DNA of 32,000 nt from Candidatus Iainarchaeum sp. (GTDB taxonomy: Archaea; Iainarchaeota; Iainarchaeia; Iainarchaeales; CSSED10-239). The position numbers were made by a program, and so were the translations under genes. Below the pieces are notes generated by a model. It was not told where the DNA came from. It ran no database searches and was given only the letters and a program-made list of their open reading frames with translations. How positions within the stretch are numbered: the stretch's first letter is position 1; every line of letters begins with the position of its first letter. The stretch spans positions 2,821 to 34,820 of the forward strand of contig CALBUD010000051.1 of assembly GCA_937968065.1 (NCBI GenBank). The letters run 5' to 3'. Positions 3,001 through 26,354 of this stretch are shown here, piece by piece.

Positions 3001-6000
3001 TTATAAAATTTTGAAAATATTTTAAAAGTTTCTTCATTTATATTTATAGGTTGATTATTTCTATTTATAGTATTAGTAATTAAATCTTTATTATCATTAT
3101 TTAATAAAGGAACTATAGCAGAAATATCTTCATCAAATGATCTAATAAAATTCCATAAAGAATATTGAAGATTTACATTTAATTGTCTAAATTTATTTGT
3201 TTTATTAGTTGCTTCATCTACAACTTTAACTTCTTTACTAATTTTTACATAAATAATATCAACTCCATTTTTATGAACTACTTTTGAATTTTTAGGTTTT
3301 GTATATAAAGTTCCTCCAGTTGAAGAAATTCTTCTTAATTCTGTTTCTCCAGTTTCATCATTTGTTTTAGAAACAAATAATTTAAGATTATCTTGTTCAA
3401 TAGGTAAATCATGTACAAATTTAATATATACATTAGGATTTCCTTCAGATAATACAAATTTTAAATCAGCATTTGTATCATCTTCTTTAAAATTAGATTC
3501 TAATTGTTCAATAAAATATTCAGGTCCAGTAACTTCGTTTATTGATTTACCTTTAATATCAAATGCTGAATATATTTTAGGTAATATTACTTCTGCAGGA
3601 ATATGATTATAATTTTCAACTCTAACAGTATTTAATTCATTATATAATTTTTTTGCATTTTCTCACGGAGTAGATAAATTATCTCCTTGTGGAAAATATA
3701 TATTAAAATCAATAGGTAAATTAGAATTTGTTCTAGGAATCATTATTCTTCCTGAATCTAATAATTGAGTATTACGTTTAGTTCAAGCATTTAATTTTTT
3801 ATCTAATTTATCAAATGATTCGTCTGTACCATTTAAAGGAATTTTAGCTCATTCAGCAAAAGATGTAAGATGTTGTAAATATTTTGGATTAATAAAAGTT
3901 TTATCTTTATCAGCCTTTTTAAAATTTTCTTGAAAAGTATTTAAAACAAATCTTAATTTTACTGAATCTAAATCAAATTTATTATAATAAATTCCATTTA
4001 CTGTAAATGTAGTTTCATCAGGTTTTAAATCTCTCGGAGCATTATATATTTTAACAACTTGATCTGATAAACTATTTACATTTGTTTTAAAATTATAATA
4101 TTTTTCAAGTGTATTTAAAGTAACAGGTTTACCATCAATTAAAATAGTATCTCAAAGATTAACTTCACCTACTGTTATATTATCATTGGGAAAAAATGTT
4201 TCTAAATATTTATCTAATATTTGATTATTTGAAAGAACTTTAACATCAGGAAGACTAGTTCCTCATTTAAAAGCTAATTTTCTTAATTCACTTTGTTTAT
4301 ATATTTTTCCATCTTTCCCTTGATATAATTGAACTATACCGTGAGAAGGATTTATGACAGCACCAAGACCAGGATAATAACGAGTTATAAATTCATTATT
4401 CATTTTTGTAATCATCTCTCTAGTAAAATCTCTAAAGAAGTGTTGATTACTAAACGGTAGTAATTGACCTATTCCAAAAGTTTCAGCTATTGTTTTTGCT
4501 AATGTTGTTCCTTCAGAATTTGCTAAATTATATGCAAATTGTTTAGATAAAACTGTATAAAAATCATTAATTTGTTTTTCAGTTAAATTATCAGAACTAG
4601 AATAATATTTTTTAGAAGATTCTTTTATTATTCTTGCTATATCTTGATATACTTCATTAGCTAAATAAGCAGTTGTAGGATTTTGAGCAAGAGCAGATAT
4701 AATCTGAGTAATTTCTTTTATTTTAGATTCATTTGCTGAGTGATTAGCATCTAACTGAGGTCCAATATAATCATTTTTAAATGTAGTGTAAGTTAATCTT
4801 TCATTACTTTCTCATAATCGAGAAGGATTTAGATTAATTTGTCCAGATTTAAAAGAACTACCATTAGATATAAAATGAATCATTTTATCTTTTAAAATAT
4901 ATTTTCCATCATTATCAACATAAGATGTTACTAAATCATATATTAAATCATTTGATCCTTCAGAAAATTCTAAATCTTCTGTAATAGTATCAGCTCCTCC
5001 AAATGCTTTTCATATATCAAATAAATTTTTTACTTCAGTCTCGACAATTGGTTTAGAAAGAATACCATTAAATTGTTTTGTATCAGGATTATAAGAATTA
5101 CCTAATATAACAATTTTACCCTTAGAAATAGCATAATTATTTATTTTATAATAATTTCCATTTTTATAAAATCCTATAAATGGTAATTCTTTTGAAGTAT
5201 ATTCTAAATCTGAAGGTAAATCAAATGCAGATAACATTTGATCTTGTTTATTTAACATATTAACTTCAGATTTTGAAGAATCTCTAATTACTTCATTTGT
5301 TATTACAAATTCAGCATCCTTTTTAAGAGAACTTCCATAAGGACTTATAAAAGTACCAATTTCCTTTTTAGTACCTTGATAACTTTTACTTGGAAAAGAT
5401 TCTTCAATCATTCTAGAATAAGCATAATTTATTCAAGTTGATCCATCATGAATATCTTGGGTATGAGTTTTTCCAGATAAATTACCTAACTTTGCACTAC
5501 GATCTTGTATAATTGCTCCATTAATTTTATCAGGAACACCTAATTGATAATTCTTAATAGGAATTTCATAAGTAGCTGTAAAAGATACATTACGCTTACT
5601 CATGTTAGGAAGTCTAAAAGACATTTCTTTAAAGTACTCTGTTCAATGAAGTTTATTTTTATCTATATCACCTTTTTTAATATCTTTATCAGATAAAAAT
5701 TTAGAATCAATAAAATTATCTCCCCTAAATTTTAATTTAGATTCTTTATCTTTTGATTTAAAAGGGTGCATATATTCTGGTTTAGTAGTAATATATAAAT
5801 ATTCATGTTTGAATAAATTGTTTACTCATAAACCTCTTTTTAATAAAGGATTTAATAAACCTGTTTTAGATTTAATTAATACTCCTTCTCCTTTAACAAC
5901 AAAATTAGTCTGAAAAGATTTTTTATCAATTCCGAAAGTAGTTAATAAACTATTTAAACTTAAATCTTTTTCTTCCATTTTATCTAAATCACCAGATGAA

Positions 6001-8843
6001 AATAGATATTCACTATTAGAATATTTAATTAATTTGTTTATTAAAGAATTTTCAGACTCTTTTACAAAATGATTAAAATTATCCTTATTTTCAAATATGA
6101 AAAAATTATCAATAATAGGTTGATTTAAACCTAGCCTAATAGATTTTCCATCTTCTGGAGATACATAAATTGAATAATGTAATTCTCCAGAAATATTAAT
6201 AGAATCATCGTTAAGTCGTTTAGTTCTAATATGTTCTAATAAATCATTTAAAGTTTTAAATTCTTTTAAGAAATCATTTATTTTCTTTATATTACTTTTT
6301 ATTATTTTTATATCAGGATTAGCAACATTAACATTGCTAATTTTAACTCCTAATTTACTATATTGATCAAATATATTTCTTACTACATCTCAGTAATAAT
6401 TATATGATTGAGTTCTAACTAATTCTAATAAATTAGTTTGAGTCATTACATTTTTACCACTATTATTACCTATAATATATTCTCCGTTATGTTTAATATT
6501 TTTATCTATTATCTTATTAACAATAGAATTTTTATCTGAATAATTACCAATCATAACATTTATTCCACCTACTTTTGATGTAGGTCTAAAAACATCTAAA
6601 AAGTCATATTCAAAACTTGCAGTAAAACTTTCTAAAGCTGTTCAATTAAAAGCTGTTTTACTTTTATCTTCATTAATAGCTTCTAATTTTGTAGAAGTTC
6701 CTAATAAACCTCCATCTTGTAAAAATAAATTTCTATATTGTTCAGAACCAGTTTGTTCTAATAAATGTCTTTCTAATAATACATTTCCATCATCAAACAT
6801 TAAATTTGCAAGTTTAAATGTTGGAATTTTTTCTCCTGTACTTGTAGTAGTAACCATTATAGCTTTCATTGGCTGATTTTCCAAGAAAATATCTAATATA
6901 TCTTGAATTTTTTGACTTAATTTAGAAATTACTTCTGATTTAGATTTAACTTCAGCCTTTGTTAAGTCAGCAATATTTTCTTCATTTTCTTGAATAGCTT
7001 CTAAAATACCCTTTTGACCTTCTTCTTCTGATTGTCTAATTGAAACTAAAAAGTCTCTAACATACCTAGCAACTTTTTCTTTATTCTCTCCCTCATTAAA
7101 TTTAGGATCTTTTAAAGCTTCCATTAATTTAAATGCTCCTTCTGGTCCTAAATATATACCTAATTTAGCATAAATCATATTAGATAACTTTTGAGGAGTA
7201 TCTGTTTGTTTTTTAATATTTTCAATTTCTTTCTTAATATTCTCAGACTCTTTAGCTGCATTTTCAGATGTAGAAGATACTCCAATTCAAAATTGATTAG
7301 GAAGAGTTGTTCTTTGAGACAAATAAGAATATATTGAATTTTGTAAGTCAACTCTAGTTGCATTATGAGAGTGCATTTCTTGAAGTTCTAACTTACCTGT
7401 ATTTTGATTATATACTGTATAATTTGCTCCGTATGAATTATTTACTACTTGAGATACTATATTTAAAATTGATCTTTTAGAATTTTTTTCTTTTGTTGCA
7501 TTTTTAGTTAAAAAAGAATCCAAAGATCTTAAAACTCCAATTTTATTATTGAAAGTTACTGCATTTCTATTATTATATAAAGAATCTTCAGATACTCAAT
7601 TATCTCCATCTTTAGCTTCAAGTATATTATGAATATACCATTTTAACATTCTTAAAGGATCTTTAGAGAACAATGTTCAATTTTCAAATCCAAATGGGTG
7701 AGTATCTTTAGTATCACCTAATTTAGAAAAATCATCATCTCTTAATTTAATTAATTTATTGAAGTTTAATATTTCAAAGTTTTTTATAAAAGCAGCTAAA
7801 GAATATAAATCTTTTCTATCTAAATATAAACCAGTAAAATCTCCATTATTATCTAATAAAGGAATAGATTCAATAATAGCATCAGATAATTGATCGCGAA
7901 TTTCTTCTACTGATTCTGACATATGTTCTTCAGTTTTCCAATATTCTGTAGACTTTCCTTTAGGAGTTAAAGAATATTTACTAGAACTGCCTCCATAATT
8001 AAAATCATTAAAATATTTTACGTCAATTTTAATAACATTGTTATAATATTTATAAAGAATATTATCAAAATTAACTAATAATATTGCAGCATTATAAGCA
8101 TCTAATTTTAATCTATCATTTATATTAGATATACTTCCTGTTAGATCAGGTATAATTTGATCAAATATATTTACTACAGCATTAACGTTATTTTTTCCTA
8201 ATAATGTTTCTTCTAATATTTTTAAAGTATCTTTATATAAATCATAGTTTTTAAAGTTACCTCTAAAATCATATAAATTTGCTATAAATTTATCTTCTTT
8301 ATAATATTTACTTATGTTATCAATTTTTCCTAATTCTTTTAAATAATCAACAATAGTTTTAAATAATTTATTTTTTAATGACTTAATATTATTATTAACA
8401 TCAAAGTCACCTCTTACATAAGTTTCTATTGGATTTCCTTTTTCATCTTCTTCGGGATTAAATATAACAGCTTCTACAAATTGTTGATTTAATCGTTTTT
8501 CAAAATATTTTTTAGCAACATGATAATCGCTAAATAAATCTACAATTAAAGGTGAATTAAAAATAGATTTTACATTAGATACTTTTTTAGAAATTACTTT
8601 CTTTCTAATTTGAGGATCTGATGCATTAAAATTATAATTTAATCGTTTAAAAACTTTTTCAATTCTATTATAAGAACTTTCAGTAAATTCTTCTTTTATC
8701 TTTTTTAAATTATAATCATTTCCTAAAAGAGAACGCACATATTCTAGTGCGTTCTCTCATGAAGAAAAACTTCCATTTTCTAATTTAGTCTCTAATTTTG
8801 ATACTACTCTTCCCTGTAAATTAGGGCTACAAATATCGCTCAT
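1..8843 (-). CDS. Giant virion-type RNA polymerase-like protein. Partial: the C-terminus runs off the left edge. More than 2947 aa with TGA read as Trp.
   Basis: Track fragments 708..1052, 1332..1883, 2151..2735, 5010..5411, 5433..5624, 6642..7178, 7287..7523 and 7677..8738 share one frame (low coordinate divisible by 3), and each ends in TGA. I read every gap codon and found no in-frame TAA/TAG from 3 to 8843. The start is ATG at 8841-8843 (MSDICSPNLQGRVV...), 9 nt after the upstream stop. There are 22 in-frame TGA. The segment SARIPAQSMQSF...WYQGSDFDIDKSYMMG lies at 2745-2873. It resembles the RAPTLHRxxxQ...NADFDGD segment of RNAP beta-prime and the DFDID metal site that I recall (from memory) for the phi14:2 gp66 / crAss-like virion RNAP. 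Confidence 0.7.
2745..2873 (-). other. Putative catalytic double-psi beta-barrel segment of the RNAP-like giant (R-I-P-A-Q-S ... D-F-D-I-D, about residues 1991-2033)
   Basis: Direct translation gives gtc-aaa-atc-aat-atc at 2745-2759 = D F D I D on the minus strand, and acg-aat-agg-agc-ttg-aga at 2856-2873 = R I P A Q S. The spacing and flanking aromatic residues mimic the beta-prime NADFDGD loop context. Confidence 0.55.
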
Positions 8844-8852
8844 TTTTTATTT

Positions 8853-11800
8853 TTATTGACAGTTTATAAATAAATTATCAAGTGAATCAGAATCAGAATG
8901 ATCTATTCCTAAAGTTTTAAAAATATAACTAGTTAAATCATATTGAACAGTATGATGATCTGAATTTTTAGAAGTTAAATTATAATAATGGTCTAATAGT
9001 AATGAAGATTCTTTCGGAAATTCATTTAATATTTCATATAATGATTTACCATTAAATACTTTATTTCTTCATTTACTGATTAATTGATTAAATATTAATT
9101 TATCTTCTTCACTTAATTCATCGAAATTTTGATGAATAGTTTTAAGATTATTTAATAATGCTTCTACTGGTTTGCTCGAATTTTTATTAACAATTTCAGT
9201 TATTTCATCAAAAACTATTTCAGGAGTTAATTCTGTTTTTTCAGTATTTAAACTTCTTAATTTTTGTTCTAAGTCAGAAATATAAATATTCATTCCTTCT
9301 TCAAAAGATGTACTTTCAGAAACACCTGGTAATGTTGATAGATTAGATATATCAGTTAATCCTTGCAAAGTATATTCTGTATTCTTTTTATGTTCTAATA
9401 TATCTTTAATTAAAGTTGCAACTTTAATTTTTAAGTTTAATCTTTCTTTTGTATCACCTGGTTCATCTTTAACTATAGCTTCACCACTATATTTTATTGA
9501 TTTTAATTTAGTAATAAGTTTAGTTATTTCTGGGTCTATTTTGTCTTTTTTGTCTTTTTTCTTAGCAATGATTACATTATCGGATAAATCTAAATTCAAA
9601 TAAGGACCTTCAGGAGTTAATGTAATAAAAGTATTTGATAAATTACTATCAACATCTTTAATTTTAAAACCTTCTCCATCTTTAGTTATGGGAATATTAT
9701 AATAAAATTTATCATTAAATTCATTAGATCAGAATTTAAGCATTTGATCAATAATTTTTATTTGACTTTTATAAACTTGAATAGTTTCGTCAAAATAATT
9801 ACCAACTTCAGCTTCATAAAGACCAAGTGTATGATTCATTTGATCATAAAATGAAAATATATTCCAGAATTTAGTTGACCAATATTTCTTATCGGTATAA
9901 CCTTGAATTTTTCTTACTAATTTAGTTTTTAAATTTTTTTCAGTAAGAGTTGTTTTTGATTTTTCTGCAATAGTTAATTCATTTTCAATTAATAAATATA
10001 CTTCTCTTAATCTAGAATGTTGTCCTTTTTCTTTATGAGTCATATTCTCAATTAAATCCTTAGAAACAATTTCATTTATTAATGATAATAATTCATTATT
10101 TTTTATATTCTTTCCAGCTAAATCCTTATTAGATTCTTGTATAAGTTGTTTGCCAGTTTTGAAAAATTCTCTAAATAACTGAGGTTGTTTTACAGCCATT
10201 CTAACTAACATATCTAATACTTGATTAGCATTAAATAATGTTTCTGTAACTGGAAATACTTCATCTTGTCGTTTAGATAAAATTAATTGTCTTGCTGAAA
10301 TAGGAGTTTTTAATCCTAAAGGATTTCTTATAGTTTCTTGTATTTGTTTTATTGTTTTAGTATTAGACTTCAACAATACATATTGAACGTGAGATTTATC
10401 CTTTATAAATGTAACTGCTACATAAGGTTTACCTTTATATCCAGAATTAGTTCCTTTTCCATAAAACAATTCTTTTAATTTTTCTTCAGATATTGGTTCA
10501 CCAAAGGTTATTTCAGCATATTTTTGTTTAAATTTTTCAAAAGTATTAGGAAATATTTTAATTGCTGGCTTTTTAACATATTCCGTTCCATCAAGAAATA
10601 ATAAACCTTTAAATTTAGATAATTCTTCTAAAGAATATTTTACAGGATTATCATCACTTTTAACAAGTCTAGTAGAAGTTTTTACATTGATTTTAGTTGG
10701 ATCAATTTCAACTTCATCGTCAATAGAATTAATAAAATTTTCAAATTTATCTCTAGATTCTTTGTCTTTTTCAAATCAAGTATTTACTGTATTAAGTAAT
10801 GGAAATGTTGCTAATTGTACATAATATTCTTTTGAACCATTACTAACTTTTAACATTAAGTTATAATAATCATCTCCATCTTCTAATGGTGAAGTTTTAT
10901 CTAACTTTTTATCAAAAGCTGTATTATATGCTTTATAATATGTAGATTTTTTTACTACTAATGTACTTTGTAATTTACTAGTATCTCCAAATATAGCTTT
11001 TAATACTGTATTTAATACTGGAGGTTGAAATTTATTTTTTCCAGTTGATTTAGAAGTTTTCCAAATATCATATTTTAATCTAACAAATTCTTCAACATAA
11101 TTATCAAAATCGGCTTCATTAAATCCGTCTGTTGGTTGAATATCATATAAGAAAGATAATCCATAAGAAAAACTACTATTTGGATTCTTTTCAACAAATA
11201 CTTTTCCACCTTTCCTGGTAATATTTATATCTAAATCATTATAAAAAGTATGAAGTCTATATTTAAAAGATTCTTTTTCAAATTCAGGATCAAATTTTTC
11301 TTGTGTTAAAGTTTCTCCTGTATATTCAGAATCTCCATCATCTTCATCAGTTAAATCTAATTCTGATTTAGAAAATTTAAAGAAATCATATTTAATATCA
11401 AAATTTGGATTTAATATTTCTTTTAGTTTATCAATTCTTTTCTTTTTATCTTCATCAATTACATTTTTCTGTAATGGAGTTACAAATACTGTAGAACTTT
11501 GTTGTTCATTTTTCAATCGAATTATGCTAGTATCAGGATTTGTAATTTCACCTTCATTTAATATTATAGTAGCTTGTTTAGACCTTGTACTATAAGTATA
11601 TAATCTTCTTAAAGAATCTAATACGTGTCTACCTTTTATAAATGAATTAGGTAATATAAAATAATCTACTTCAGATCCTTGAATATTACCTTCAGTAAAT
11701 AACTTAATATTAGCTTTAGTAATACCAAAAGCTTCAAACTGTTTTTCTAATTCTGGATCTAATTCATTAATATTATTAGATAATACACCAATTTTAGTTT

Positions 11801-14800
11801 CAGGTTTATTTTTAATAATATTTCTTAATGTATTTAATACATCATTAGGAATTAAATTAGTACTAGAAAGTAAAGTTCCAGTTAATACTTCAGGAGATAA
11901 ATGATATTTTAATAATATACCATTATCTATCATATCCATTATAGCTGGAGTATCTTCAGCAGATGAAAATATATTTATTGATCGTTTAACTAATGCAGAT
12001 AAATAATCATTATTTTCTCTTTGTTGAGAATTAGCTGCCCTAACACTTAGGGATAATTGTGGTGAAAATATTCCAGATACTCTATCAATATTATAAGATA
12101 CATTTTCAACTTTTTCATTAGTAATACCTAATTGAATATAATCACCAGCTCCTATAATTTTTAATTTATTTGTTCGTTTAGAATATTCATTAAGTAATTC
12201 TAATTCTAAAGCATCAAAGTGAGATATTTCATCTATAAATAAAACATCAGGCAAATTAGTTTTAGTTAAATCAAAATTAATTTTATTTCAATCTTTAATA
12301 ACTATTTTTTCAGCTTTATTTTCAGAATTAGGTATAGCTATTTCTACTATTTCTACTATTTCAGAATTATTAAAATCTTCTGCATAAATTTGTTCAAGAA
12401 TTTTATCAATTCCTAATTCTTTAAATAATGCAGATTTAATAAATTTTTCTTTAGTAAATAAAGTATGATCAATACTACTTAATACAGAATCATATAAATC
12501 ATTAGTTTTATCTAAACTTGGTGCTGAAAATCAGATATTTAAATTAGGATTATTATTTTGTAAAAGTAAAGTTATTATTTTAAATAATACTGCTGTTTTA
12601 CCAGTTCCTGCATCACCTAAAATATAAGTTATTCTGTCTGTTAAATGTGCAAGTTCACTTTGTGTATCAATTATTATTTCTGAAAATAAATCTGGTTCAA
12701 TAATTGAAGCATATATTACTTTAGTAGAAAATTCTTGAGTAAAAAATGGAGATTTATCAAATGAATCTTTTTCTAATATAGAAACTAATCTATTATTAAA
12801 ATCATATGAATCAACAGATAAACTAGTAACTAAATACAATAAAAAATCATTATTACTAATAGATTTAATATTTTTATCAATTCTATTACTTCCATCTTTA
12901 TCATATAAATCATATAATATATTTTTAAATTTAAATATTCTTGCTAATTCTTTTACTACTTTAATTCTATCTTCTTTAGAATAAGTATTATAATGTTCAA
13001 AGAAAAGATGTTCAATTTCTAATAATTTTTTCTCATCATCTAAATTAGAATCTATTAATTCTGATAAATCAGGAAATGAAGGAACATCTGGTTTTTCTTT
13101 TATAACAACCTTTCAAGCATATAATAATTGCTCATTTGTTTTTTTCCTTATTTCTTCTTCTTCTAAGAAAATTTGTCCTGAATTATTTCTAGATAAATAT
13201 ACTAGAAATTCTAATTTATTTTGAATTCTTTGTAATTCTAAAATTACTAAATTAGCTATATCAGAAGATATAGTTTTTAATTTTGTAATATCAGATTTAG
13301 TATCATGTTTTTCAGCAAATCGTTTTCTTGCTTCAATAAATCCTATAGGATCTTCACTAGAAACAGTAGTCATACTAGTACCTAATACAATAGACCTAAG
13401 CATCTTTAAAGCATCAATTGCTTGTAACATATCTTTTTCTTGAAATCCGGCTTTAATATAATTAGTTGGATCAGAAGCATTAAAAAGAGTTAAGTTTTCA
13501 TCCCTTAAAATATCAACTATTGTTTTTTGCCTTTTTTCTTTTTCATCGTCTAAAGATAATAAAAAATTATTTAAAAATTCATAAATAGTATTAGGAATAA
13601 ATTTTTCTTTATTATCTAATACTTCTTTTAATTCTTTTAACTTGTTAATTGTATTTTTATTTTGTTTTACTTTTTTATTTATTTCTGAAAGTTCATTTTC
13701 TAAAGCATACATAGTAGCATCAAAATTTTCAGAAGTATTTAAAATATCCATGATATAACTTGGAAAAGTATCCCAAAACCCCATATCGTTTTTATAATCT
13801 TCTATAGAATCTTTAAAATCTTGATTAATAGTAGAAATATTAAAAATTAAATCTAATAAATTTTCATTTGAAATTGTAATTTCTTTAAAAAAGTCTCCTT
13901 TAAAATTAGATATTATTTTTAAATAAATTTCTTCTAACTTATTAAATAACTCTTTATCTAAGTTACCTGAATCTTTAATTTCTTTTAATATTGCATCAAG
14001 AGTATAGTTGATTGGTTCAAATACATTAAAATCCTCAGCCTCTGTTGTTATTTCTGATTCTCTTTTTACATATTCAGAATAATTATTTTTATATATATCA
14101 AAAGTAGAATGTATTTTATCTACAATAGCTTCAATTTGAGATAATTTTGAATCAGAATCAGACATTATTAATTCAATTAATGAATTATCTCCGGGATTAG
14201 TTAAAGCAAAAAATTCAATATATTGTTTTAATGCTTCTTTAAGTTCATCATTTGTTAAATCAGATACATCTTTTTTAAGAGTCTTAGCAAACTTATCAAG
14301 AGTATTTTTATGTGTTTCTAATTTTCAAGTAAGCATGTCTGAAGAGAAACCATTAACAAGTTCAGGAGTTAATCCTAATCTTACCATTTCATTATTAAGG
14401 AAAAAAGCTATTTGTCTTTCTTTTTCATCTAACTTTTTATCTCCTTGAATATAATGTAATGCTACAATAAGTTTTTTACTTTCTAAATCCTTAATTTGTT
14501 GATCAATCTCATTAGAATTTTCTTCTGTTTTTTCTGCTAACAATTCTTCTTGTTTTCTTTCAAGACCATCATTATATGATTTAATTGTATCATTAAACAT
14601 AAGTGCTATTGAATTGAAATCTAAATTATCAGTAGGTAATTGAGAAAGAGTACTTTTTAAAACTCTTTGTATTATTTCTCTTCTTGTAGCTTTTTCTTCA
14701 CCTTCAGTTAATTCTTGATCTAAATAAGTATCTGATAAAGGATTTCCTGTAAAGTCAACAATAAGTCCTTTTTCTTTAAACTTATCATAAGCGTCTATTG

Positions 14801-17663
14801 ATAAAGAATCTCAAGGATTTGATCTTATACCAGTATTGGTTTCAACCATCTTCTGAATTTTTAATCAATTAGCAACTGATTCTTTTGCAGCATTTGCATC
14901 TTTTACATTAAACATTTTAAAGTTTGTTGCTATATCTAGAAGATTTAAAAATGTTTTTCTTCGTTGTTCAGAGTATCCAGACTCAGAATAATCAAAAAGT
15001 GGTTTATTTAATTTCTTTTCTAAGTCCTTATAAACATTTCAAGCAACATCCAAATTTTGTCTAAAATTTACAATATCTTTAGAACTTTCTCATTCTTTTT
15101 TAACTAATTCTTTAGTAATTCCTAATCCAGATTCTGGAAGAGTATGATATTCTTTATTATAACGTGCTTCTGTAAAACTTGCTAAGTCAATTGCTAAAAA
15201 TGCTTTACTTATATCTTTTTGTAAATATAAGTTTATTTTATCAAAATAATCTTGGGCTCTTTTACCTTCTTTTATATCAGTTACTTCACTTCTATGTCAT
15301 TCTGCTTTTTCTTGAAGTTGTTTAATCGCTTCTTTATTACCTTCTTTGTCTTCTGATAATTTTTGAATTTCAGCATTTAATTCAGTAAGAGCGGCAGCAT
15401 GTTTTCTAAAGTCTTCAACAATTATTCCTTCTATCCCAAGTTTATCTTTTTCACTAATTGTGCCAGCTAAATCTCTAATTATTAAATAATCAGCCATAGC
15501 CTTATCAATTAATTCTTCATCACTTAGAATTAACCCTTCTTTATTCATTAAACCATCTATATCTTTTATCATAGCTATAGTAATATCTGCTACAACATCT
15601 GCATGAGAATAACCTTCTTTATCTGTTGCTGTAGTTTTACCTTCAACTACAAAAGGTGCAATATATTTATTACCTAAATTTTTTCTTAATTTATTTACTT
15701 CATTTATTAATAAATCTGTTTGTCCATTTCCAATCATTTCATATACTGATTGTCTTGCATCAAACGATATTTCTTGATTTTTTAACCAAGGTTTAGATCT
15801 ATTAAGTTCAAATAAAGCACCACCTAATACACCACCCATTAATGAAGCTGCATATCTTTCTAAACCAGATAAAGAAAATACATTCTGAAATCCTCCAAAA
15901 GTTCCTCTCTTTTTAGTAAGTCCTAAATGAGACATTACATCTACAACACCTTTAGTGGCATCAATTACTAGTTCTTCTGATACTTCTTCAATACCTTCAA
16001 TTATAGCATTTTTTCAAAGAGCTTCTCCAATAACAGATGTATTAGTCATCATATCAGAAATATTACTCTTCCATCCTTTAACTGCTTGAGCAAGTTTAGC
16101 TTTACCTTGTGCTGTTCCAGATGCTTTAATTCCTGCTTCAATTGGTTCCATATATCCTTTTAAACCTTTTCTCATTAAAGCTTTATTAGTTTCAACAGTA
16201 TATCCTGTAGTTTCATCTAAAAATCAATCTCCCATTCTATTGTTCATCATAAGAGCATAAGTTCCTGTAGCTGCAAGTAAACCTGCAAAACCAGCAGTTC
16301 TTCTATCATATCCTCCTTCTAATGCTTCTCCATATATACTTGCTGTTGAAGTTAAAGCCATGTATCCTAAAGAAAAGGATTTAGCCATAGCAGATTGTTT
16401 TCTTTGAATTTCTTGTAAACCTGGAACTTTTGAAGCTAATTGAGAATGTATAAGTTTTATTTCATCTTCATCTATTTGACCAGTACCTCATTTTTTAAAA
16501 GTTGTTTCATTTACTTTACTTATTAATCTTTGCTGATCAGCAGATAATTTAACTTTAGAAGGATGGTAAAATAACTTAGATAATGAAGCCATTGCTCTTT
16601 GTTCATATATTTGACTAAAAATATCTGCAACCATTGTAGATATTTGTTCATAGTTAAATAAAGAACCTTGTGCTTCATCACTAGTAGAAGTTGCTGCAAA
16701 CTTAGCCATATAATTTTCTGCAGCTGTTGCTACATGATTTAATTTACTAGTTTCTTCTCCTAATATAATACCTTCTAAAGATTTATATAAAGTAGGAAGT
16801 GCAGAAGAAAGCCCAATTGCAGCTTTTACTGCTCCATAAGGTAATGCTACACCTGGAATAAATAATGGTGCTATTTCTGCAGCAATTTTTAAAGTAGTTT
16901 TAATAGCATTAGCTTCTTTATTATCTGCATCAAATATATCAAAACTATTTGCTAAAGTACCATCAGTAGTTAAAGCATCCATAGGATTAACTACTTGTTT
17001 ACCATAAACTTCTCTTTTACCTAAAGTTTCTACAAATAATTCTCCATCATTATTTACTTTCCAATCTCCTTTAGAATGTTTAACCATTCTATTACTAACA
17101 GGATCTAAATGTGTTCCATCTTCATCTCACTGTGCATAAACTAAAGTTTGACCAAATAATTTACCAAGAACACTTCTGTCATTTACAGATTCTTCTAAAA
17201 ATTCTCCTTTTTCAGTATCAAATATTTTTCCTCTTTGAGCAAGTTCTCTTAAAGAAAAATTACTTTCGTCCACACTAAACACATCTGTTTTTCCATATGT
17301 TTGTTTAAATGGATTAAAATCTTTACCATATTCTACACTAACATTAAAAGTTTTAGCTTCTTTTGGACGTGTAATATCAAAAGGACTATATCAAACTTGA
17401 TCGAGAGAATTAAGATAGTCAACTTCAGTTAATCTATTATAGTGTCCTTCAGCAACATCATAAAATTTGTCAAAAGATAAATTATCAAAATTTCCATCTT
17501 CTGTTGTAAACATTTTTTTAATAAAAGGAAATTCTTTATATTCATCTTTAGTATATAAAGATGTATTTTCAGGATTTATCTCTGACGACATTAAGTCATA
17601 TGTTGTTGCCATAGGATTATTAATTGTAGCAACAAATATATCATTGGGTTTCTTTAATTCCAT
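8853..17663 (-). CDS. Giant 2936-aa protein: N-terminal region with hydrophobic Gly/Ala-rich segments, a long coiled-coil-like acidic/Lys-rich middle, and an embedded SF1B helicase core. Putative virion cargo/ejected protein.
   Basis: The nine track fragments from 9069..9599 to 17391..17663 are all in one frame and all end in TGA. All eight gaps were read codon by codon with no TAA/TAG. There are 17 in-frame TGA. The start is ATG at 17661-17663 (MELKKPNDIF...), 1 nt after the upstream TAA. The stop is TAA at 8853-8855 (...DNLFINCQ*). Confidence 0.8.
11559..12617 (-). other. SF1B (RecD/Dda/Pif1-like) helicase core inside the 2936-aa giant (about residues 1683-2035)
   Basis: All motifs are seen in direct translation. 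Walker A is ILGDAGTGKTAV (12594-12617). Ia-like is IWFSAPS, with the W encoded by TGA at 12531. Walker B/II is DVLFIDEISH (12219-12242). Motif III is IIGAGDYIQLG (12129-12146). Motif V is GNIQGSEVDYFILP. Motif VI is LYTYSTRSKQATIIL (down to 11559). Order and spacing fit the SF1 helicase pattern GxxGTGKT / DExx / GDxxQL / QGxExD / YxxxTRxK. Confidence 0.75.
15804..16886 (-). other. Three hydrophobic Gly/Ala-rich, transmembrane-like segments in the N-terminal third of the 2936-aa giant
   Basis: The segments are IAAEIAPLFIPGVALPYGAVKAAIGLSSALPTLY (16785-16886), RRTAGFAGLLAATGTYALMM (about 16245-16304) and AASLMGGVLGGALFEL (15804-15851). This is judged by eye only; no TM predictor was run. Confidence 0.4.
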
Positions 17664-17664
17664 G

Positions 17665-19512
17665 TTATTCCATAATTAATTGTTGAGCATTGCCAGACTG
17701 TACAGGAACCTGACTAGAATGTCAAATATTTCTTTGAACATCTGCAATAGTAGATTTTTTATCAATTGGACCTTGATTAACTAAAGCATCTACAACTGCT
17801 GTAGCTGTATCCCTATAAGGAATTGTTATAATAGCTTTATAATAATCTTCTATATTAAATCTAGCATTTGGTGTAACGTCTTTAGCATTTTTACCTATTC
17901 CTACTGTTCATACTTGTTCTAAAATAGGAAGTATTGATCGTTTTTCATCAGAAGATAATTTTTTAACTCAAGGATTATTTTTAGTTAAACCCGTAGCATC
18001 ATTTGTATATCCATACATTACTAAAAAAGGTTTGATATAAGCATTGTTTCTTATTACTTTTTCTCCACCTACTTGATCTATTTTTAGATTAAAATCAGCA
18101 TTTCTAAAATGTTTTTCTGCTTCAAGTGTAGTCCAAGTATCTTTCTTTTTTTCATATTCAGCATATACTTCTTTAAATTCTTGAAAAGCTTCATAATCGG
18201 GTTTACCATCTTCACCTACTGGCATATATATTTTTGCAGCTGAACTAGTCGGGTCATAAACAACATTGTTTAAATTATTTAATTCAACTTTCTTATCTCC
18301 AAAGTGAACTTTAGAGCCATCAGCAATCATATTATAATCATATTGAGATAATATTTGACCAACTGTACTAAATCCAATTGATTCATCTTTCTTGGTCATA
18401 AGTGGTCCAACTGCTCCAATAGCACCTCTAAATAATACATTTAATTTAGGATCATTAAATGCAAATGTAGATAAAGGATCAGCTAATTTATCTTTGTGAA
18501 ACATTTGAAATGCTGTTAAAGATTCTAATCCTTTTTCTGTTTGAGAACCTTTTATTGATGTCTCTGTTTCGGGACTTATGATAGATGTAGTTTGTGGTTC
18601 TGTATATGAAATTAACATATCATAAATAAATGCTTTTGGGTTACTTTGTCCGTTCATTGCTGCAGAAGCTTCGAGTTTTAATTGACTATTTCTACCTAAC
18701 GAAGTTCATATATAACTTAATGCTTTATCTATATTCTGTCTTTTTCCTTTAAATTCTGATACAATTTTTGTATAATCTCCTGGAGTATTTAATGCTTCTT
18801 GTAGTGTTTTGATTGCATTCATATCTTCATTTGTTGGTTCTTTACCTCCAAATGATTTTAAATATTGTGCTAATTGGTCTTTAGAATAATATCTTTCGGT
18901 TTTCTCTGAAAAATCACTCATAATACCCATCATTTGTCTGATGTGATCAGAAATTTTTTCTAAACCTATTGCTTGATCCGCAACAGAAAATACAGATTTA
19001 TTAAAACTTAATTGCGGATCATATTGTCTAGCCATCATTAATTCAGATACAGTCAAAGGATTATACTTACTTTGATCTTTCTTATATGTGTCTAAACTAA
19101 TAGTTTTAATATTATTATCTTTATCTCTGACATAAAGTTCTCTACTTGGACCAATAGCTACTTCACTTAATCCTCCAGATTCTTTAGCAACTTTTAAAGA
19201 GTTTTCTCATATTTCTTTATTATTTCGTAATTCATTGATTTTACCGATTAATTGATATGTTTTAGATCTTGATCCTTGATCCATAAAATTAAAAGGGTCT
19301 GATTCTAATGCACCTAATTGTTCAACAAGTGCATTAACCTCATTTATCAATCCTCCTTTAGTTACTAATTCTTTATACATAGTATCATCTAATAATCCCG
19401 CTTTCTTTTCTTCTGCTTGAGAAGATCCTGTTGGAGCAGCAGGAGCTGATTGAACAATGGGGGTGAACGTAGCAAATCCACCCCCTTGTAATTTCCTAAT
19501 ATTATATTTCAT
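17665..19512 (-). CDS. 615-aa virion-module protein of unknown function, with an N-terminal KLQGGG leader
   Basis: Fragments 17968..18657, 18706..19056 and 19207..19512 share one frame and end in TGA. The gaps and the 17665-17967 tail were read with no TAA/TAG. There are 5 in-frame TGA. The ATG at 19510-19512 overlaps the upstream TAA (19512-19514) as TAATG. The stop is TAA at 17665-17667 (...NAQQLIME*). Confidence 0.8.
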
Positions 19513-22500
19513 TATTTGAATATCTTTAATAAAGATTTCTGCATTAATTCATTGTTTTTAAGAATAGTTTTATATATTCTTTCAACATCTTTTTGAGTTC
19601 TTGATAATTCACTTTTATATCTAGCTAACTCTTTTTTCTCAGATAAACTTCCACCTTTTGCTCTATAAGAAACTGAACCTGGCATTTGCATTGCTAATCC
19701 TAAATTTCTAAGATTATATTGGTAATTTTCCATATATTCTCTTATTCTATTAAGTCTGGCATCAAATTCTTTTGCAGCTTGAGATTCTTCAAAAGTAGTT
19801 ACTGTTTCATCAGAATCATCTTGAGATCATGCTTGTTTAGCTTTTTCTCTAGCTTCTTGAATTTGTTGCGCCTCTTTCATTTGTGCTCTATATTCAGGAT
19901 CAGTCATAGCTGCATAATAATCAGAATATTTTTTATTCCTCTCTTTAATTTGCTTATTTTGAGCATAACCTTGGATAAGATTTTGGAAAGCTGCATTATT
20001 TGCAAGCATTTTATTAGCATCAACTAAATGAAGTGCTCTTTCACCTTCAGCAGCAGAAGCCATATTTTTAGCCATTGTTTCTAAATTAACTAACTGAGTT
20101 TGTCTATTAGATTGATCTTGTCTTTCTAAAGTTTGTTGTATTTGTTGCTGATCAGCAATAACTCCTTTTTCTCTTAATCCTGCTCCTTGTCCTTCTGCTG
20201 TAAGTCTTGCTGCAAAACCTTTGTCTATATCAGCAATACTTCCTGCCATTCTTTTACCAACTGAAGATAATCTTGCAGCTTGTGTATCATAAAATGGAGC
20301 TAAAGTACTTGATGCTCTAAAATATTGTGGAGCAATTGTAGGTAATTTAAGTATTCCAGCTAATGCTGCTCTTTTTTGAGATTCAGCTATTGCTTTATTT
20401 GCTTGAATAGTTTCACCATATCCAACTACATTTAATAAATCTGTTTCATTTATATTAGGTAATTTAGACTTAATATCTCCCAAATTTATTCTTCTATTTT
20501 TAATAATGTCGGATCCAGATTGAGGTTCAAACATTTTTCTTTCTGCAACATTCATGTCATCTTTAGTTACTTGATATACATCTACTTTTCTTCTTGGAAT
20601 AATTCCACTATTTTGCATTTTTAATACTCCACCTTCTTTATAACCTCTAAATCAACTTTGATTTAAATAACTGCCAACATCGCCACGAAGAATTGCTCTT
20701 AATCTTTCATATTCATATTTAGGTAATTTAGATTCTTCTAAAGTCATTATTTTAGACTTACCTGCAGGATTAATTTTAAATTGATCATCTATATTAAGAT
20801 TCTTAATTTTATCAACCTGAGATTTATCAACCAAAGCTTTTTCTAATTCTGATTTAAACTTATTAAATTCAGTTTCATTGTGAGTTTTAATTGCTTCTTT
20901 ATCTTTACCAAGTTTTCTTATAGATGATTTTTTAAAATTAGGAGCGTTTATTTCTTTAGTTAATGCAAATTTTTCTTTACCTATTTCTAATTGAACTTTA
21001 TCATTAGTTCCAGCTTTTCTTAAAGTATCAGCTTTTTTAATTGCGCCTTTATTTTTTAAGAAACCTTTTACAGCACCGGCTCCATAAAATACATTTTTTA
21101 AATCTTGCATTTGAACACCTTCTGTACCTGCTTCTGCTGCACCTTTAACTACATTAGCACCAGAATATAATACATTAGCACCACCTAATACACCTAAACC
21201 TTGAGCAGCACCTTTACTAATTTTCTCCCATCCTGGTAATACACCTATAAGTTTTCTTAATCCTGTAGTTTCATCTAATAAAATTCTCTTAGCTAAACTA
21301 GGATCTTTTGGTACTACTGGTGGTGGTTGCGGTTTAAGAACAAACGGTTTAAATTCTTTAACTTCTTTTGTAATTTTTGAAGGAGTAAAACCTCTAGTTA
21401 TATTTTGATCAAAAATAGTTTTTGCAGAATCACTTGTTCCTTTCTTAATTATAGTAGTTGATGTAGTTTTTGGATTAACTATACCAGCAGCTTTTAATAA
21501 ATCTAATTCTTTATCAGTAATATTAGCTGCTTTATAAGTTGATACTGTTCCTTGTTTTGACATTAATTTAGATACACCACTAGCAAAATTTTTAGCATCT
21601 TCTGTTTTATCAACAACTTTTACTAAACTCTGTAATTTACCAGCTTTACTTGCGGCTTGAGTACCTATTTTTAATGCTCTTAATCCACCAAGTCCTATTG
21701 CACTTAAACCTATAAAACCTAAGTTCATTAAGTGAGTTCCTAAAGTAACATCATCGTCTCCTCTAATATCTCTAGCAATATCAGCAACTGTAGTTACTGC
21801 TGCACCAGCCATACCAACACCGGGCAATAAAGAAGCAGCTGCACCACCAACTGATAATCAATCTAAGAAATCAGCATCAGCCATACTACCTCTAATGTCT
21901 CTAGTTTTAGATTCTTTAGGTTCTTCTTTTGGTTTATTAGCATACTTATTTAAGTATTCTTGTGCAGTTAATGATGTTCCAGATTGTGCTTTCAATATAC
22001 CACCTTTTTTTCTAAGAATTTGCATATTTGGAGATCTAAGTGATTCTCCAACTTTACCAATAACAGATTGATCTTTAGGTGCTGGTACTTCAGATACTTG
22101 TAAATAATTATTTATAATTTTTCTTATAATATTTTTAGTTTCATGTCCAGCAAATCTATCTTGACTTTGTAATTTATCAAGTAATTCAATATATTTATTA
22201 CTAGCTTGACTTCTAACTAAATAACTTGGGTCATTTTGTGAAATATATTTTAATTCAGAAATAGTTTTACCAATACTTTCAGTTTCAGAAGTTATATTAC
22301 TTCTAAGAATTGCATCTGCTGTATTTAATGTAGCTGTTGTATTTTCAGGTTGAGTTCCTTGTATTGGTTTAAATGGATCATTTTCAGAAAGAGTTAAATA
22401 ATCTAAATATGCCGGTCTTAAACCTTCACCTTCTGCAAATCTTTGAATATCTACATTAACAGGTTCACCATTATCTTTTCTAGTATAAACACCATTTTGA

Positions 22501-23771
22501 TTGTATTGTAATTCAATTTCTTTTTTTGTTTGAGGATCTTGTAAAATTAAAGTTTTTGTATAATTAAATCCTTTTTCTCCTCTTTCAGGAACTCCAAATA
22601 TATTTCAACCTTCAAAACCAGTTACTTTACCTTGAATTGGTCTAAACCTTTCTCCTTCAAATTGAAATTTGAATTTAGATGGATCATAACCTTCAACTCC
22701 TTCTTGAAATAATGTAGGAATACCTTCTATATGACTAAAATAAGTACCATAACCAGGTGCATCAGGATCAATATATGTAGATTCAAATAATCCTGTTTTA
22801 CCAATTACTATTTGTCTACCTGATTCATCTTCTAAAACTAATCCTTTTTTAGATATATCTTCTTGTAATCAAGGAGAATCAATGTTTTTTAATCTATTAT
22901 CTGCAGAAATTTTAGTAAACCCTTTTTCAACAGCACCAGCAATTACTGAATCAGCATATCCTTGCTGTCTAAGATTCTTAATAAATCCTTCAAGTTCATT
23001 TTGTTTAGCTTGTTGACTTTCTTGTTTTATCTGTTCTTCAGATTTAGGAAGTAATAATCCTCTAGGATTTCATCCTAATTTCTGACTTTCAGAAACAAAA
23101 GTATCTCAATCATTATTTTCTATTGCACTTAAAATAATTTCTTTATTTTCAACAGGTAAATATTCTCATCCTTCTTTTGGAGTAGTACCATATTCAGAAA
23201 CATATTTTCTAGCAATATTCATTACTCTTTTCTTTTTAGCTGACTCATCTTCACCAAAAGTTGCTAAATCTTGTGCTCATAAATTCTCTGCTCCTTCTTG
23301 TCCACCATATATTGATTTTTGTATATATAATCCAAGATCTCCAATTTTCTTTTTACCTAAATATCCTGCAGCTTTCTTTTGAGAATCACTACCTTGAGTA
23401 GATTTTTTATTTTGTAAATATTCATTAGTTCAATTAGCTATTAATGTATTGACGTTAGATTTAGGTGTAACTTGTCCAAATATATTTGTTTTTATTCCTT
23501 CTTCACTCCCTGTTCAATCAATACCTTGTAATTCAATTGGAAGTTTACTTGCATCTATTTTATATTTTTGTGTAATTGGATCATATTGATATGCTTGTTC
23601 AAGTGATCCAGATTTAATTAGTTTTCCTCAATTGGAAGCAGCTTCTCTTGCTGGTTGTTCTGCTTTTGCTGTAAGAATACCTTCTCCAAATTTCTTACTT
23701 ATGAAGTCTTCATAATCTTCATATAAATTTGGCGAAGTACCTCCAGATTGATATTTTTTAACAACTGACAT
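19512..23771 (-). CDS. 1419-aa tape-measure/ejection-like internal virion protein. It has Gly/Ala-rich hydrophobic segments, a Gln/Ala-rich coiled-coil C-terminal part and multiple x-x-GG motifs.
   Basis: ATG at 23769-23771 (MSVVKKYQSGGTSPNLYEDY...). The track shows no ORF across 21858-23771 because TGA codons are dense there. I read all of it in frame and found no TAA/TAG. It joins fragments 20652..21827, 19827..20618 and 19512..19733. There are 12 in-frame TGA. The stop is TAA at 19512-19514. The functional label rests on composition and architecture only. Confidence 0.75.
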
Positions 23772-23800
23772 ATTATATGCTGTATTAATTGTTTTTAATT

Positions 23801-23836
23801 AAAAAAATAAGGGAAGACAGATTCTGTCTGCTCCCC
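23801..23836 (-). terminator. Rho-independent terminator downstream of the 88-aa Ala/Gly-rich gene
   Basis: The minus strand reads GGGA[GC]AGACAG-AAT-CTGTCT-TCCC followed by TTATTTTTTT. That is a 10-bp GC-containing stem with a 2-nt bulge, a 3-nt loop and a T-run. It begins 10 nt after the TAA at 23846-23848 and lies about 30 nt before the next ATG (23771). It is the only GC-rich hairpin plus T-tract I found in the window. Confidence 0.7.
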
Positions 23837-23845
23837 TTATTCAAA

Positions 23846-24112: not shown

Positions 24113-24120
24113 TTTTAAAA

Positions 24121-24696
24121 CTAGTTTTTTGATACATATTCAGGCTCTGAATCATTTTGAGCCTTTAAAAATTTAAACACTCTCTTCCCTAATGCTTTAT
24201 AGTCACTGTCTTTTTGAGTTACAGCAGCTTTCTTAGCAAACTTAATTAAAGTCTTAGTATTAGGTCTTGAAAAAATTCTTTCTCCGCCTTCCAATTCCAT
24301 TTGCGGAGTTCCATCGTCATTTAACACTAACATTTTATCTTGTTTTACTTTTGTATTTGGAGAAAATTCTAATTCATCACCTGGTTTTACTCCTGAATTA
24401 ACATTTAATTCTAAAACAAAAGCTACGTCTTGTTCTGTAAACATTTCTTCTGAATTAGGTTCTCCTTGATAAACTGCTTTAATATTGAGATCAGTATCTA
24501 TAAAAATAATATCTAAAGGAATTAAAGTATCTTTCATTCACATAGAAACTTCTTCTGTATCTGTAAAAGAAAATAACATACCTTCATCTTGTGGTAAATT
24601 TTCTACTCCTTGAAGTCCCTTTTCTCTTTGTTCATCAGTTTCAGCAATACTTACTTTATATGTATTATCACCGATTCTTATTTTTATTTTATCCAT
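24121..24696 (-). CDS. DUF192 (PF02643/COG1430-like) domain protein with a C-terminal extension, 191 aa
   Basis: The ATG at 24694-24696 is preceded by an in-frame TAA at 24700-24702. The stop is TAG at 24121-24123. The translation is MDKIKIRIGDNTYKVSIAETDEQREKGLQGVENLPQDEGMLFSFTDTEEVSM[W]MKDTLIPLDIIFIDTDLNIKAVYQGEP...AFVLELNVNSGVKPGDELEF. This matches the family pattern as I remember it: GLM...GMLF.F......fWMKNT.iPLDiiFid...yVLEl.aG....GD. The bracketed W is the TGA at 24538-24540. Confidence 0.8.
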
Positions 24697-24835
24697 TTTT
24701 TATAATCTATGAAAGAAAGTTTACCTTGATTTTTAAGTACATTTTTTAAATGAATTGCTTCATTTCAATCATTTGTTTCTAAATGAGTTATATATTTTTT
24801 CTTCTCTATATTATAAGTAATAACTCAATATATCA
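24697..24835 (-). promoter_or_regulatory. Largest non-coding gap in the window (139 nt); candidate regulatory region upstream of the DUF192 gene
   Basis: No ORF longer than 11 codons exists in any minus frame, even with TGA read as Trp. It contains an 8-bp inverted repeat (TGAGTTAT...ATAACTCA) and a 7-bp hairpin, AAATGAA-GCAA-TTCATTT. I could find no convincing sigma70 or Bacteroidota-type promoter consensus. Confidence 0.3.
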
Positions 24836-25102: not shown

Positions 25103-25103
25103 A

Positions 25104-26351: not shown

Positions 26352-26354
26352 AGT

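Follow-up and report, generated by a model that had tools for sequence, protein, structure and literature searches.

The locus and its genetic code

The stretch of DNA analysed here, hereafter the window, comprises 32,000 nt of contig CALBUD010000051.1, filed under Candidatus Iainarchaeum sp., and carries on its minus strand the gene g2936, whose very large predicted product holds a complete superfamily 1 (SF1) helicase core in its middle and which lies directly upstream of a gene for a homolog of the crAss-type virion RNA polymerase (RNAP). With TGA read as a sense codon, the open reading frame (ORF) of 2936 codons occupies exactly 8853..17663 (17663 -> 8853), from ATG to TAA. An earlier note, made from the sequence alone, had placed a giant of this length at precisely these limits; it gave no strand, however, and the frame that it described stays open only if TGA encodes Trp.

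8853..17663, minus strand: g2936, giant-protein gene (code 4, 17 in-frame TGA = Trp, stop TAA 8853-8855)

Under the standard bacterial code the span breaks into minus-strand pieces of at most 492 aa each, because 17 in-frame TGA codons interrupt the frame. A stop census of this frame from 17663 gave 17 TGA, no TAG and a single terminal TAA, and the remaining five frames over the same span hold 111-526 stops. In alignments, Trp stands at the TGA positions 179, 480, 858, 951 and 1711 in 17-20 of 21 homologs and at aa 1517 in 16 of 21, and MT835470, a relative that uses the standard code, has Trp at positions 179 and 1711. Code 25 (TGA = Gly) was ruled out, as Gly never occurs at the aligned TGA positions, and the standard-code ORF calls were dropped in favour of code 4 after the census and the Trp alignment. 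Judged from these frames and alignments, TGA is a Trp codon in g2936 and the 2936-aa protein is real; public collections contain an identical protein, P0001.

The recoding is pervasive: 17 of the 24 Trp codons of g2936 are TGA, every gene of the window (1-32000, minus strand) requires TGA = Trp with 1-22 in-frame TGA per gene, and in the code-4 reading the whole minus strand consists of tightly packed genes. No tRNA gene, suppressor or other, is encoded in the 32,000 nt. In Zeta phages, a group of crAss-like phages, TGA recoding is concentrated in late and structural genes, and giants such as g2936 are recognisable only if the genome is translated with TGA = Trp. Ochre is the sole stop codon seen for the large genes of this genome. 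The GC content steps within g2936 at about 15000, from 21-26% (1-15000) to 28-33% (15000-27000), and this step coincides with the end of a conserved Gly/Ala-rich N-terminal block.

A complete SF1B helicase core within the giant

The segment between residues 1635 and 2045 of g2936 contains the following features, for which the counts refer to 116 aligned sequences.

11529..12761, minus strand: predicted SF1B helicase core, aa 1635-2045, both RecA-like domains with inserts (hidden Markov model (HMM) envelope 1635-2044, Pfam, PDB profile, AlphaFold2, Foldseek)
12732..12749, minus strand: Q motif PFFTQE, aa 1639-1644 (Q1643 in 116/116)
12594..12617, minus strand: motif I / Walker A GDAGTGKT, aa 1683-1690 (G1686, G1688 and K1689 in 116/116)
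Minus strand: motif Ia, segment WFSAPS, aa 1711-1716
12219..12242, minus strand: motif II / Walker B LFIDEISH, aa 1808-1815 (D1811 and E1812 in 115/116, the remaining sequence being gapped)
12126..12152, minus strand: motif III GAGDYIQLG, aa 1838-1846 (G1840, D1841 and Q1844 in 115/116)
12030..12047, minus strand: motif IV SVRAAN, aa 1873-1878 (R1875 in 115/116)
11664..11687, minus strand: motif V NIQGSEVD, aa 1993-2000 (Q1995 in 113/116, G1996 in 115/116, E1998 in 113/116)
11577..11600, minus strand: motif VI YTYSTRSK, aa 2022-2029 (T2023 and R2027 in 115/116)

The helicase motifs named in the earlier note lie where it had put them, and the Q motif, which it had missed, can be added to the set. 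Motifs Q, Ia, III (GDxxQ), IV (R), V (QGxE) and VI (TR) follow one another in canonical order and spacing and are invariant or nearly so, as are the Walker A Lys and the Asp-Glu pair of motif II (K1689 in 116/116, D1811/E1812 in 115/116). By its motifs, the SF1 helicase core at residues 1635-2045 is complete and its catalytic residues are conserved, and since these residues are kept in 113-116 of 116 sequences at no more than 45% pairwise identity, the helicase is, on this alignment, under purifying selection. The refutation that the earlier note had offered, a lack of conservation of the key residues in homologs, is not borne out by these counts.

SF1 helicases were recovered with Pfam, with a PDB profile search and with Foldseek, and these matches exceed chance by a wide margin. 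Pfam AAA_19 and AAA_30 score just over their gathering thresholds on the segment, UvrD_C_2 matches faintly over motifs V-VI, and across family members AAA_12, Viral_helicase1 and SLFN-g3 are found in addition to AAA_30 and AAA_19. A single-sequence phmmer search of the segment against the PDB gave no match, and a family profile was needed (A1, 42 sequences, all below 45% pairwise identity). Its best PDB match was Upf1/NAM7 (8e-12), which aligned motif by motif across both RecA domains, followed by HelD, RecD, nsp13, IGHMBP2, Pif1 and Sen1; HelD (5e-8) was matched over the N-terminal part only, RecD (2e-7) over the N-terminal 65 positions only and Pif1 at 3e-4. The AlphaFold2 model of the core, built on the family alignment, reached a predicted local distance difference test score (pLDDT) of 90.8 and a predicted template-modelling score of 0.89. 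Searched with Foldseek, it gave 193 PDB matches at E<=1e-3 with helicases on top, among them Dda-like DSH9, nsp13, RecD, Dda, SLFN11, IGHMBP2, Upf1, Sen1 and RecD2 at 1e-11 to 1e-7, and only 2e-6 for the SF1A enzyme PcrA.

The assignment of the predicted fold to class SF1B is safe. Like the solved SF1B members, the g2936 helicase has all seven motifs plus the Q motif and a two-RecA fold with inserts, although identity to them is 13-16% and TM-scores are just 0.35-0.48; unlike the usual SF1B enzymes, it is not a standalone protein and is embedded in one of about 3000 aa, and it makes up a separate clade with at least 299 clusters at 50% identity. Its sub-family is ambiguous and not settled, with Upf1 best by sequence and DSH9/nsp13/RecD by fold, and the top Foldseek ranks interleave Dda-like DSH9, nsp13 and RecD. 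The previous description as 'RecD/Dda/Pif1-type' therefore holds for the SF1B class and is too narrow otherwise, because the best full-length profile match belongs to the Upf1/NAM7 branch and nsp13 ranks together with RecD and Dda.

Distribution of the family and conservation of gene order

A profile search of 1.84 billion representatives returned 299 sequences at E<=1e-30 and 655 at E<=1e-10, of which the 299 are representatives at 50% identity and nearly all giants or fragments. Among the best 150 matches, 112 are giants that exceed 2000 aa and have the helicase domain mostly at about 1400-1750; the remaining 38 are shorter, and many of these are fragments from gene calling in which the match begins at the first or reaches the last residue. 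No standalone version of this helicase lineage is evident among these 150. To the question whether related genomes keep the helicase fused or encode it separately, the survey gave a uniform answer: it is fused in 119 of 120 listed homologs, the exception being a truncated product of 1719 aa, and, at 42 IMG/VR loci, in all 40 giants that no contig end truncates, with exactly one helicase per locus.

The surroundings are conserved as well. Upstream of the giant, the IMG/VR loci carry a homolog of g615 (40/42), a DUF192 gene (36/42) and the C-terminus of the muzzle protein (31/42), always collinear and on the same strand, and in the 18 closest loci a homolog of the N-terminus of the RNAP giant follows the helicase giant. 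TGA = Trp is needed in 37 of the 42 loci, and 5 use the standard code. The order muzzle, g415, DUF192, g1419, g615, giant, RNAP giant holds across the 42 IMG/VR loci and recurs in the loci L001 and L002 and in Lera (PV725988), a Zeta crAss-like phage that shares both the opal recoding and the gene order of the window. The published table for Lera lists a muzzle gene (4575 nt), a hypothetical gene (1554), DUF192 (570), three further hypothetical genes (324, 2796 and 1887), a 'RecD-like protein' (8346 nt), a hypothetical gene (6321), a homing endonuclease and a 'DNA-dependent RNA polymerase'. By synteny and length, the 'RecD-like protein' (ORF191, PV725988 104,596..112,941) almost certainly belongs to the same family as g2936.

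A comparison with 50,697 annotated phages by megablast and tblastn matched MT835470 and MT835492 only, both unannotated gut-phage records. These two (MT835470.1, the locus L001 at 33075-74415, and MT835492.1) are 'UNVERIFIED' human-gut phages from Mexico of 117-121 kb and hold the same muzzle-to-RNAP block with a helicase giant of 2970 aa, in the standard code and at 36% GC; the family therefore reaches beyond the opal-recoded Zeta genomes of 156-189 kb, which have 28-38% GC. Homologs of g2936 were found on contigs of up to 176-213 kb. Taken together, the synteny with Lera, the opal recoding, the low GC content and the contigs of 150-213 kb suggest that the source of the window, which does not extend to the TerL, portal and MCP genes, is a phage of the Zeta/'Echekviridae' type. 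A cellular, Mollicutes-type origin of this code-4 DNA of 24% GC was ruled out by the crAss_MUZ domain, the virion RNAP (vRNAP) homolog and the synteny with viral contigs.

In BFVD, the best matches of the helicase model include pieces of UniProt A0A8S5RTY8, 'RecD-like protein [Siphoviridae sp. gcode 4]' (9e-24, TMq 0.72), and A0A8S5TKT5, 'Helicase [Podoviridae sp.]'. The same search returned A0A7M1RUN7_4, A0A7M1RVD7_4 and A0A8S5MJ87_1, pieces of very large 'DNA helicase' proteins of the uncultured crAss-like phages cr50_1, cr118_1 and ctcfK29, which match the model no better than generic SF1 helicases do (E~1e-10, TMq 0.43-0.52).

The adjoining RNA polymerase giant

The gene downstream of g2936 extends past the edge of the window.

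1..8843, minus strand: RNAP giant of at least 2947 aa, start ATG 8843-8841, predicted crAss-type virion RNAP homolog
2745..2759, minus strand: DFDID catalytic motif of the RNAP giant, aa 2029-2033
2844-2876, minus strand: ARIPAQSMQSF, preceding DFDID

The junction of the two giants had been described correctly as a 9-nt gap in the same frame: the stop TAA at 8855-8853 is followed by AAA TAA AAA and by the ATG at 8843-8841. The spacer (8844-8852) carries a second in-frame TAA, so that the stop is a tandem ochre. Around its catalytic motif, the RNAP giant reads ARIPAQSMQSF...(22 aa)...YQGSDFDIDKSYMMG, and DFDxD with I/V at position 4 is the signature of crAss RNAPs. In pairwise BLAST it matches gp50 of PhiCrAss001 in two collinear segments, the first aligning GSDFDIDKSYMM to GSDFDVDKLYIM of gp50 and the second being a block of 49 residues (E=9e-5). 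The RNAP of phi14:2 gave a high-scoring segment pair of 57 aa (residues 1314-1370, 39% identity, E 3.5e-4) that includes 1361-DFDID-1365, which is experimentally essential in that enzyme. A single-sequence phmmer search of the RNAP segment against the PDB found nothing. On the strength of these alignments, the downstream giant is a genuine homolog of the crAss-type virion RNAP, as the earlier note had supposed.

The RNAP giant is uninterrupted here, and its closest database homologs (P0124-P0133, about 1950-2035 aa) end just before the position of DFDID; Lera has a homing endonuclease gene within its RNAP region (ORFs 186-190), and MT835470 has separate ORFs of 2281, 991, 809 and more than 1172 aa there. 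The polymerase is thus fused in the window and split elsewhere, apparently at a hotspot of mobile-element insertion.

The remainder of the giant and the cargo block

Outside the helicase core, g2936 can be divided as follows.

14964..17663, minus strand: conserved N-terminal block, aa 1-900 (conservation; AlphaFold2 pLDDT 63)
16809..16898, minus strand: Gly/Ala/Pro-rich hydrophobic segment, aa 256-285, TTLKIAAEIAPLFIPGVALPYGAVKAAIGL (transmembrane-like hydropathy)
13614..14963, minus strand: variable Lys/Glu-rich linker, aa 901-1350 (conservation dip, composition)
12762..13613, minus strand: conserved pre-helicase region, aa 1351-1634 (conservation)
8856..11528, minus strand: C-terminal region of about 890 aa, with variability rising along it and no recognisable domain

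BLAST coverage by the 120 homologs shows two conserved blocks, aa 1-900 and about 1350-2050, and the first ~660 aa are the best-conserved part of the protein, with a mean column identity of 64% among 24 sequences sharing 50-61% identity with the query. The AlphaFold2 model of the N-terminal block (pLDDT 63) has a small beta domain at about aa 140-215, followed by long helices. Foldseek against the PDB matched it to non-significant membrane-transporter helices only (best E=0.095, TM ~0.1), and the block has no relative in Pfam or the PDB and no structural likeness to ejectosome or channel proteins. Three transmembrane-like segments had been proposed for the ~1680 residues ahead of the helicase; only aa 256-285 reaches a transmembrane-like Kyte-Doolittle score (1.54) and the others are milder, so that the number was overstated. 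Over the whole protein, a Pfam scan of 16 full-length members found P-loop/helicase families only and the full-length family profile matched only helicases in the PDB, with no methylase, nuclease, peptidase or other effector domain in either.

The genes upstream form a block that is recognisable by its muzzle gene.

30627-31646, minus strand: g339
26355..30617, minus strand: g1420, Crassvirus muzzle protein and marker of the block (Pfam PF25731 crAss_MUZ; PHROG virion structural protein)
25104-26351, minus strand: g415
24121..24696, minus strand: g191, DUF192 protein (Pfam 2e-24)
19512..23771, minus strand: g1419, 1419 aa, candidate cargo or channel protein (Gly/Ala-rich hydrophobic segments aa 641-702)
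17665..19512, minus strand: g615, 615 aa, conserved partner directly upstream of g2936 (1-nt gap)

The match of g1420 to PF25731 (1.2e-23, 83.7 bits) is well above the cutoff of 27. PHROGs gave no match for g2936, g615, g1419, g415, g339, g191 or the RNAP giant. The DUF192 (COG1430) gene, which lies between the muzzle and giant genes, is a conserved component of the cargo block. Gly/Ala-rich hydrophobic stretches like aa 256-285 of g2936 occur in g1419 (aa 641-702) and g415 (aa ~88-130); they recall the predicted transmembrane helix of the crAss001 cargo protein gp45, which makes both proteins candidates for channel-forming ejection proteins. A second helicase, sought in the window, L001 and L002 on account of an 'exonuclease V' ORF (ORF186) in Lera, was not found.

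The only sizeable non-coding gap of the block is that between the DUF192 gene and g1419 (23772-24120, 350 nt), where relatives carry a gene of about 80 aa (locus L002 3396-3638; Lera ORF194). An odd, Arg/Ser/Trp-rich ORF over the gap (23799-24155) is probably spurious. The gap also holds a terminator-like hairpin at 23829-23815 on the minus strand. Both giants had been placed downstream of one terminator-delimited unit. This was overstated: the hairpin does lie upstream of g1419, but terminator-like sites are not enriched over shuffled sequence (5 compared with 3.6 +/- 1.9).

Discussion

An opal-recoded reading frame, a conserved and intact helicase core of SF1B fold, synteny with the crAss cargo block and a virion RNAP gene as neighbour are what the locus presents, and the feature is real, ancient and widespread; its function we infer. 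Whether the protein travels in the virion can be judged by position. That giants in this slot are packaged in crAss-like phages, as the earlier note held, is borne out by mass spectrometry of the block in two phages. In PhiCrAss001 virions gp45, gp46, gp47, gp49 and gp50 were detected, whose genes follow that of the muzzle gp44, and in phi14:2 the proteins gp076-gp082, with gp082 in the muzzle position, are all annotated 'structural protein, MS/MS', including gp078, which has 1797 aa and is encoded directly upstream of the RNAP (gp076-gp078 are gp65-gp67 in the numbering of the structural paper). The gene g2936 occupies the same slot as these cargo giants, past the muzzle and the small cargo genes, on the same strand and with a giant product, and its slot adjoins a DFDxD RNAP gene whose product is a true homolog of gp50/gp66. 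The phi14:2-type neighbour differs in having a zincin-like protease domain, whereas no cargo-block protein of the window contains the HExxH motif. From position, operon structure and late-gene recoding, g2936 is probably packaged.

Here we propose that g2936 serves as a giant cargo (ejection) protein of the virion, expressed late, that is packaged together with the virion RNAP and ejected ahead of, or along with, the phage DNA. Its conserved N-terminal ~660-900 residues would serve packaging, ejection or association with the envelope, and its central domain would be a catalytically competent, ATP-dependent SF1B (5'->3') helicase/translocase. In the cell, the helicase might load at the entering end of the genome and unwind the DNA, or keep its strands open and without R-loops, which would allow the co-ejected crAss-type vRNAP to begin early transcription on the opened template; its translocation could also help to pull the genome in. 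A variant on the same theme is the removal of R-loops and release of RNA, as by its Upf1/Sen1 relatives and by vaccinia NPH-II; template opening or this variant is the role that needs the fewest assumptions. A template-opening role is proposed because of the template preference of phi14:2 gp66, the one characterised crAss-type enzyme: recombinant gp66 uses single-stranded M13 and denatured phage DNA 'very efficiently' as templates, gives no transcription from double-stranded M13 DNA and only weak transcription from native phage DNA. A helicase working for the polymerase would also explain the fixed adjacency of the two genes. Packaging and ejection, polarity, nucleic-acid substrate and coupling to the polymerase are all presumed in this proposal, and we put the probability of a co-ejected helicase that opens incoming DNA for the vRNAP at about 0.45. 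In a bolder form, an abundant crAss-type lineage of the gut would inject a protein of ~340 kDa whose SF1B helicase is indispensable to the virion RNAP, in that it provides the single-stranded template, or clears R-loops and frees the RNA, which the two-barrel polymerase could not do on a duplex; that version we consider doubtful.

Several observations weigh against the proposal. The protein has no detectable sequence likeness to virion proteins of crAss001 or phi14:2, and its positional equivalence to gp47/gp078 is the sole link; HMMs of four blocks of g2936 found nothing above noise in crAss001 gp45-52 and phi14:2 gp076-082, and six-frame scans of the two cargo regions revealed no helicase, none of those proteins having a P-loop domain. 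Cultured crAss-like phages use the same vRNAP strategy with no helicase in the block; this type of polymerase therefore does not generally need one, and the function must be lineage-specific or be supplied otherwise elsewhere. Passage through the tail would require a folded protein of ~340 kDa to unfold and then to refold. The model of the N-terminal block is mediocre (pLDDT 63) and has no structural match, which makes the ejection role proposed for it a guess. Finally, the relatives Upf1, Sen1 and nsp13 act on RNA, and neither polarity nor DNA or RNA as substrate is readable from the sequence.

The same absence of the helicase from other crAss lineages is what an accessory counter-defence would predict, and g2936 might instead be an ejected anti-defence or genome-protection protein in the style of P1 DarB or of 'polyvalent' proteins, with no part in transcription, whose helicase, for example, strips or outruns restriction enzymes, RecBCD and other nucleases on the entering DNA, or remodels the DNA end. 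A packaged protein of this kind is known from the head of P1, where DarB, which has a helicase module, protects incoming DNA in cis. Such modules rank among the most frequent domains of the polyvalent proteins that phages package, and the variable C-terminal ~900 aa of g2936 would suit an arms-race surface. The DarB modules, however, are an SF2 SWI2/SNF2 module and an adenine methyltransferase, whereas g2936 is predicted to be SF1B and no effector domain was found in 16 members; moreover, the strong and uniform conservation of the helicase and the N-terminal block in a diverse clade fits a core infection function better, and the adjacency to the RNAP gene is fixed. We therefore regard an anti-defence role as unlikely.

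Two further possibilities seem more improbable still. In one, g2936 would be a motor of genome internalisation, its N-terminal block anchored at the ejection channel or inner membrane and its translocase reeling in 150-190 kb of DNA. Genome internalisation is carried out by RNA polymerases in T7 and, in part, in N4, and SF1B enzymes such as RecD2, Dda and Pif1 are processive 5'->3' translocases on single-stranded DNA; the structural matches of the helicase to this translocase family, the hydrophobic Gly/Ala-rich segment and long helices of the N-terminal block, the similar segments of g1419 and the occurrence of the family in crAss-type genomes of the greatest size (contigs to 213 kb), for which passive entry suffices least, are in keeping with such a motor. 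SF1B enzymes track along single strands, however, so that pulling double-stranded DNA would need continuous unwinding, only one segment has transmembrane-like hydropathy, the family is also present in phages of ~117-121 kb, and no structural likeness to ejectosome or channel proteins was found. In the other, the protein would not be part of the virion and would act late in the cell as a helicase of the late operon, for example in resolving or processing replicated DNA for packaging, in recombination or in late transcription. Packaging is unproven, automatic annotations read RecD-like or exonuclease V-like, and helicases are typically enzymes of replication and recombination. However, a role as an enzyme only would leave ~2500 non-helicase residues unexplained, including the best-conserved N-terminal block, and would sit poorly with the lack of a standalone version among the 150 best matches.

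Comparison with known systems

The family has been labelled by annotation before ('RecD-like protein', in Lera ORF191 and in UniProt), so that the domain is not undescribed; these entries are names only and propose no function, packaging or link to the RNAP. 'RecD' is absent from the main text of the Lera paper. In the literature searched, no paper discusses a helicase in a cargo giant, and the key crAss papers list only helicases of the replication block. Virion-borne helicase modules as such are not new, and the earlier remark that no ejected cargo protein with a helicase was known does not hold in general, since P1 DarB (an SF2 module) and vaccinia NPH-II are precedents. PhiKZ was discarded as a precedent for a packaged helicase, as the paper states that there is none in the virion proteomes.

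The T7-like, single-subunit RNAP of phage N4 has its template opened by host gyrase and single-strand-binding protein, and it reportedly requires a single-stranded promoter structure; no helicase is known among the N4 ejection proteins. N4, with its vRNAP and two ejection proteins, nevertheless resembles the pair of g2936 and RNAP as proposed here in combining a giant virion RNAP with co-ejected proteins, and the N4 work describes the vRNAP as being expelled with accessory ejection proteins into a transcriptionally active ejectosome.

DarB would be like g2936, as we propose it to act, in being a giant multidomain protein that is packaged in the head and injected, with an NTP-dependent helicase-like module acting on the incoming genome. 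DarB-type proteins combine LPD36, an EcoKI/TaqI-type N6-adenine methyltransferase and a SWI2/SNF2 SF2 module, and SF1 (UvrD-like) modules have been reported in a few proteins of actinomycete conjugative elements only (Iyer et al. 2017). In contrast, g2936 has a predicted SF1B core and no methyltransferase or SF2 signal (Pfam, 16 members; profile against the PDB). Few helicase modules are apparently delivered as protein by phages, and those listed so far are of the DarB-type SF2 kind; g2936 extends this short list by one of class SF1B.

The closest functional analogue of the proposed mechanism is found in vaccinia, where NPH-II (and also NPH-I) belongs to the virion. NPH-II is a virion helicase alongside the viral RNAP that is needed for proper early transcription and has been proposed to prevent R-loops and to release transcripts. 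Unlike g2936, it is a separate SF2 DExH enzyme of ~70 kDa inside the core particle of a eukaryotic virus and is evolutionarily unrelated. At least 299 sequence clusters have a conserved, intact helicase beside the polymerase gene, which for one major lineage offers a direct, testable answer to the single-stranded DNA preference of the polymerase and raises the question of what opens the template in lineages that lack this helicase. If the bolder form of the proposal is true, the pair would be to phages what the virion transcription apparatus is to poxviruses, and it would be the first phage ejectosome to bring along a DNA-opening motor.

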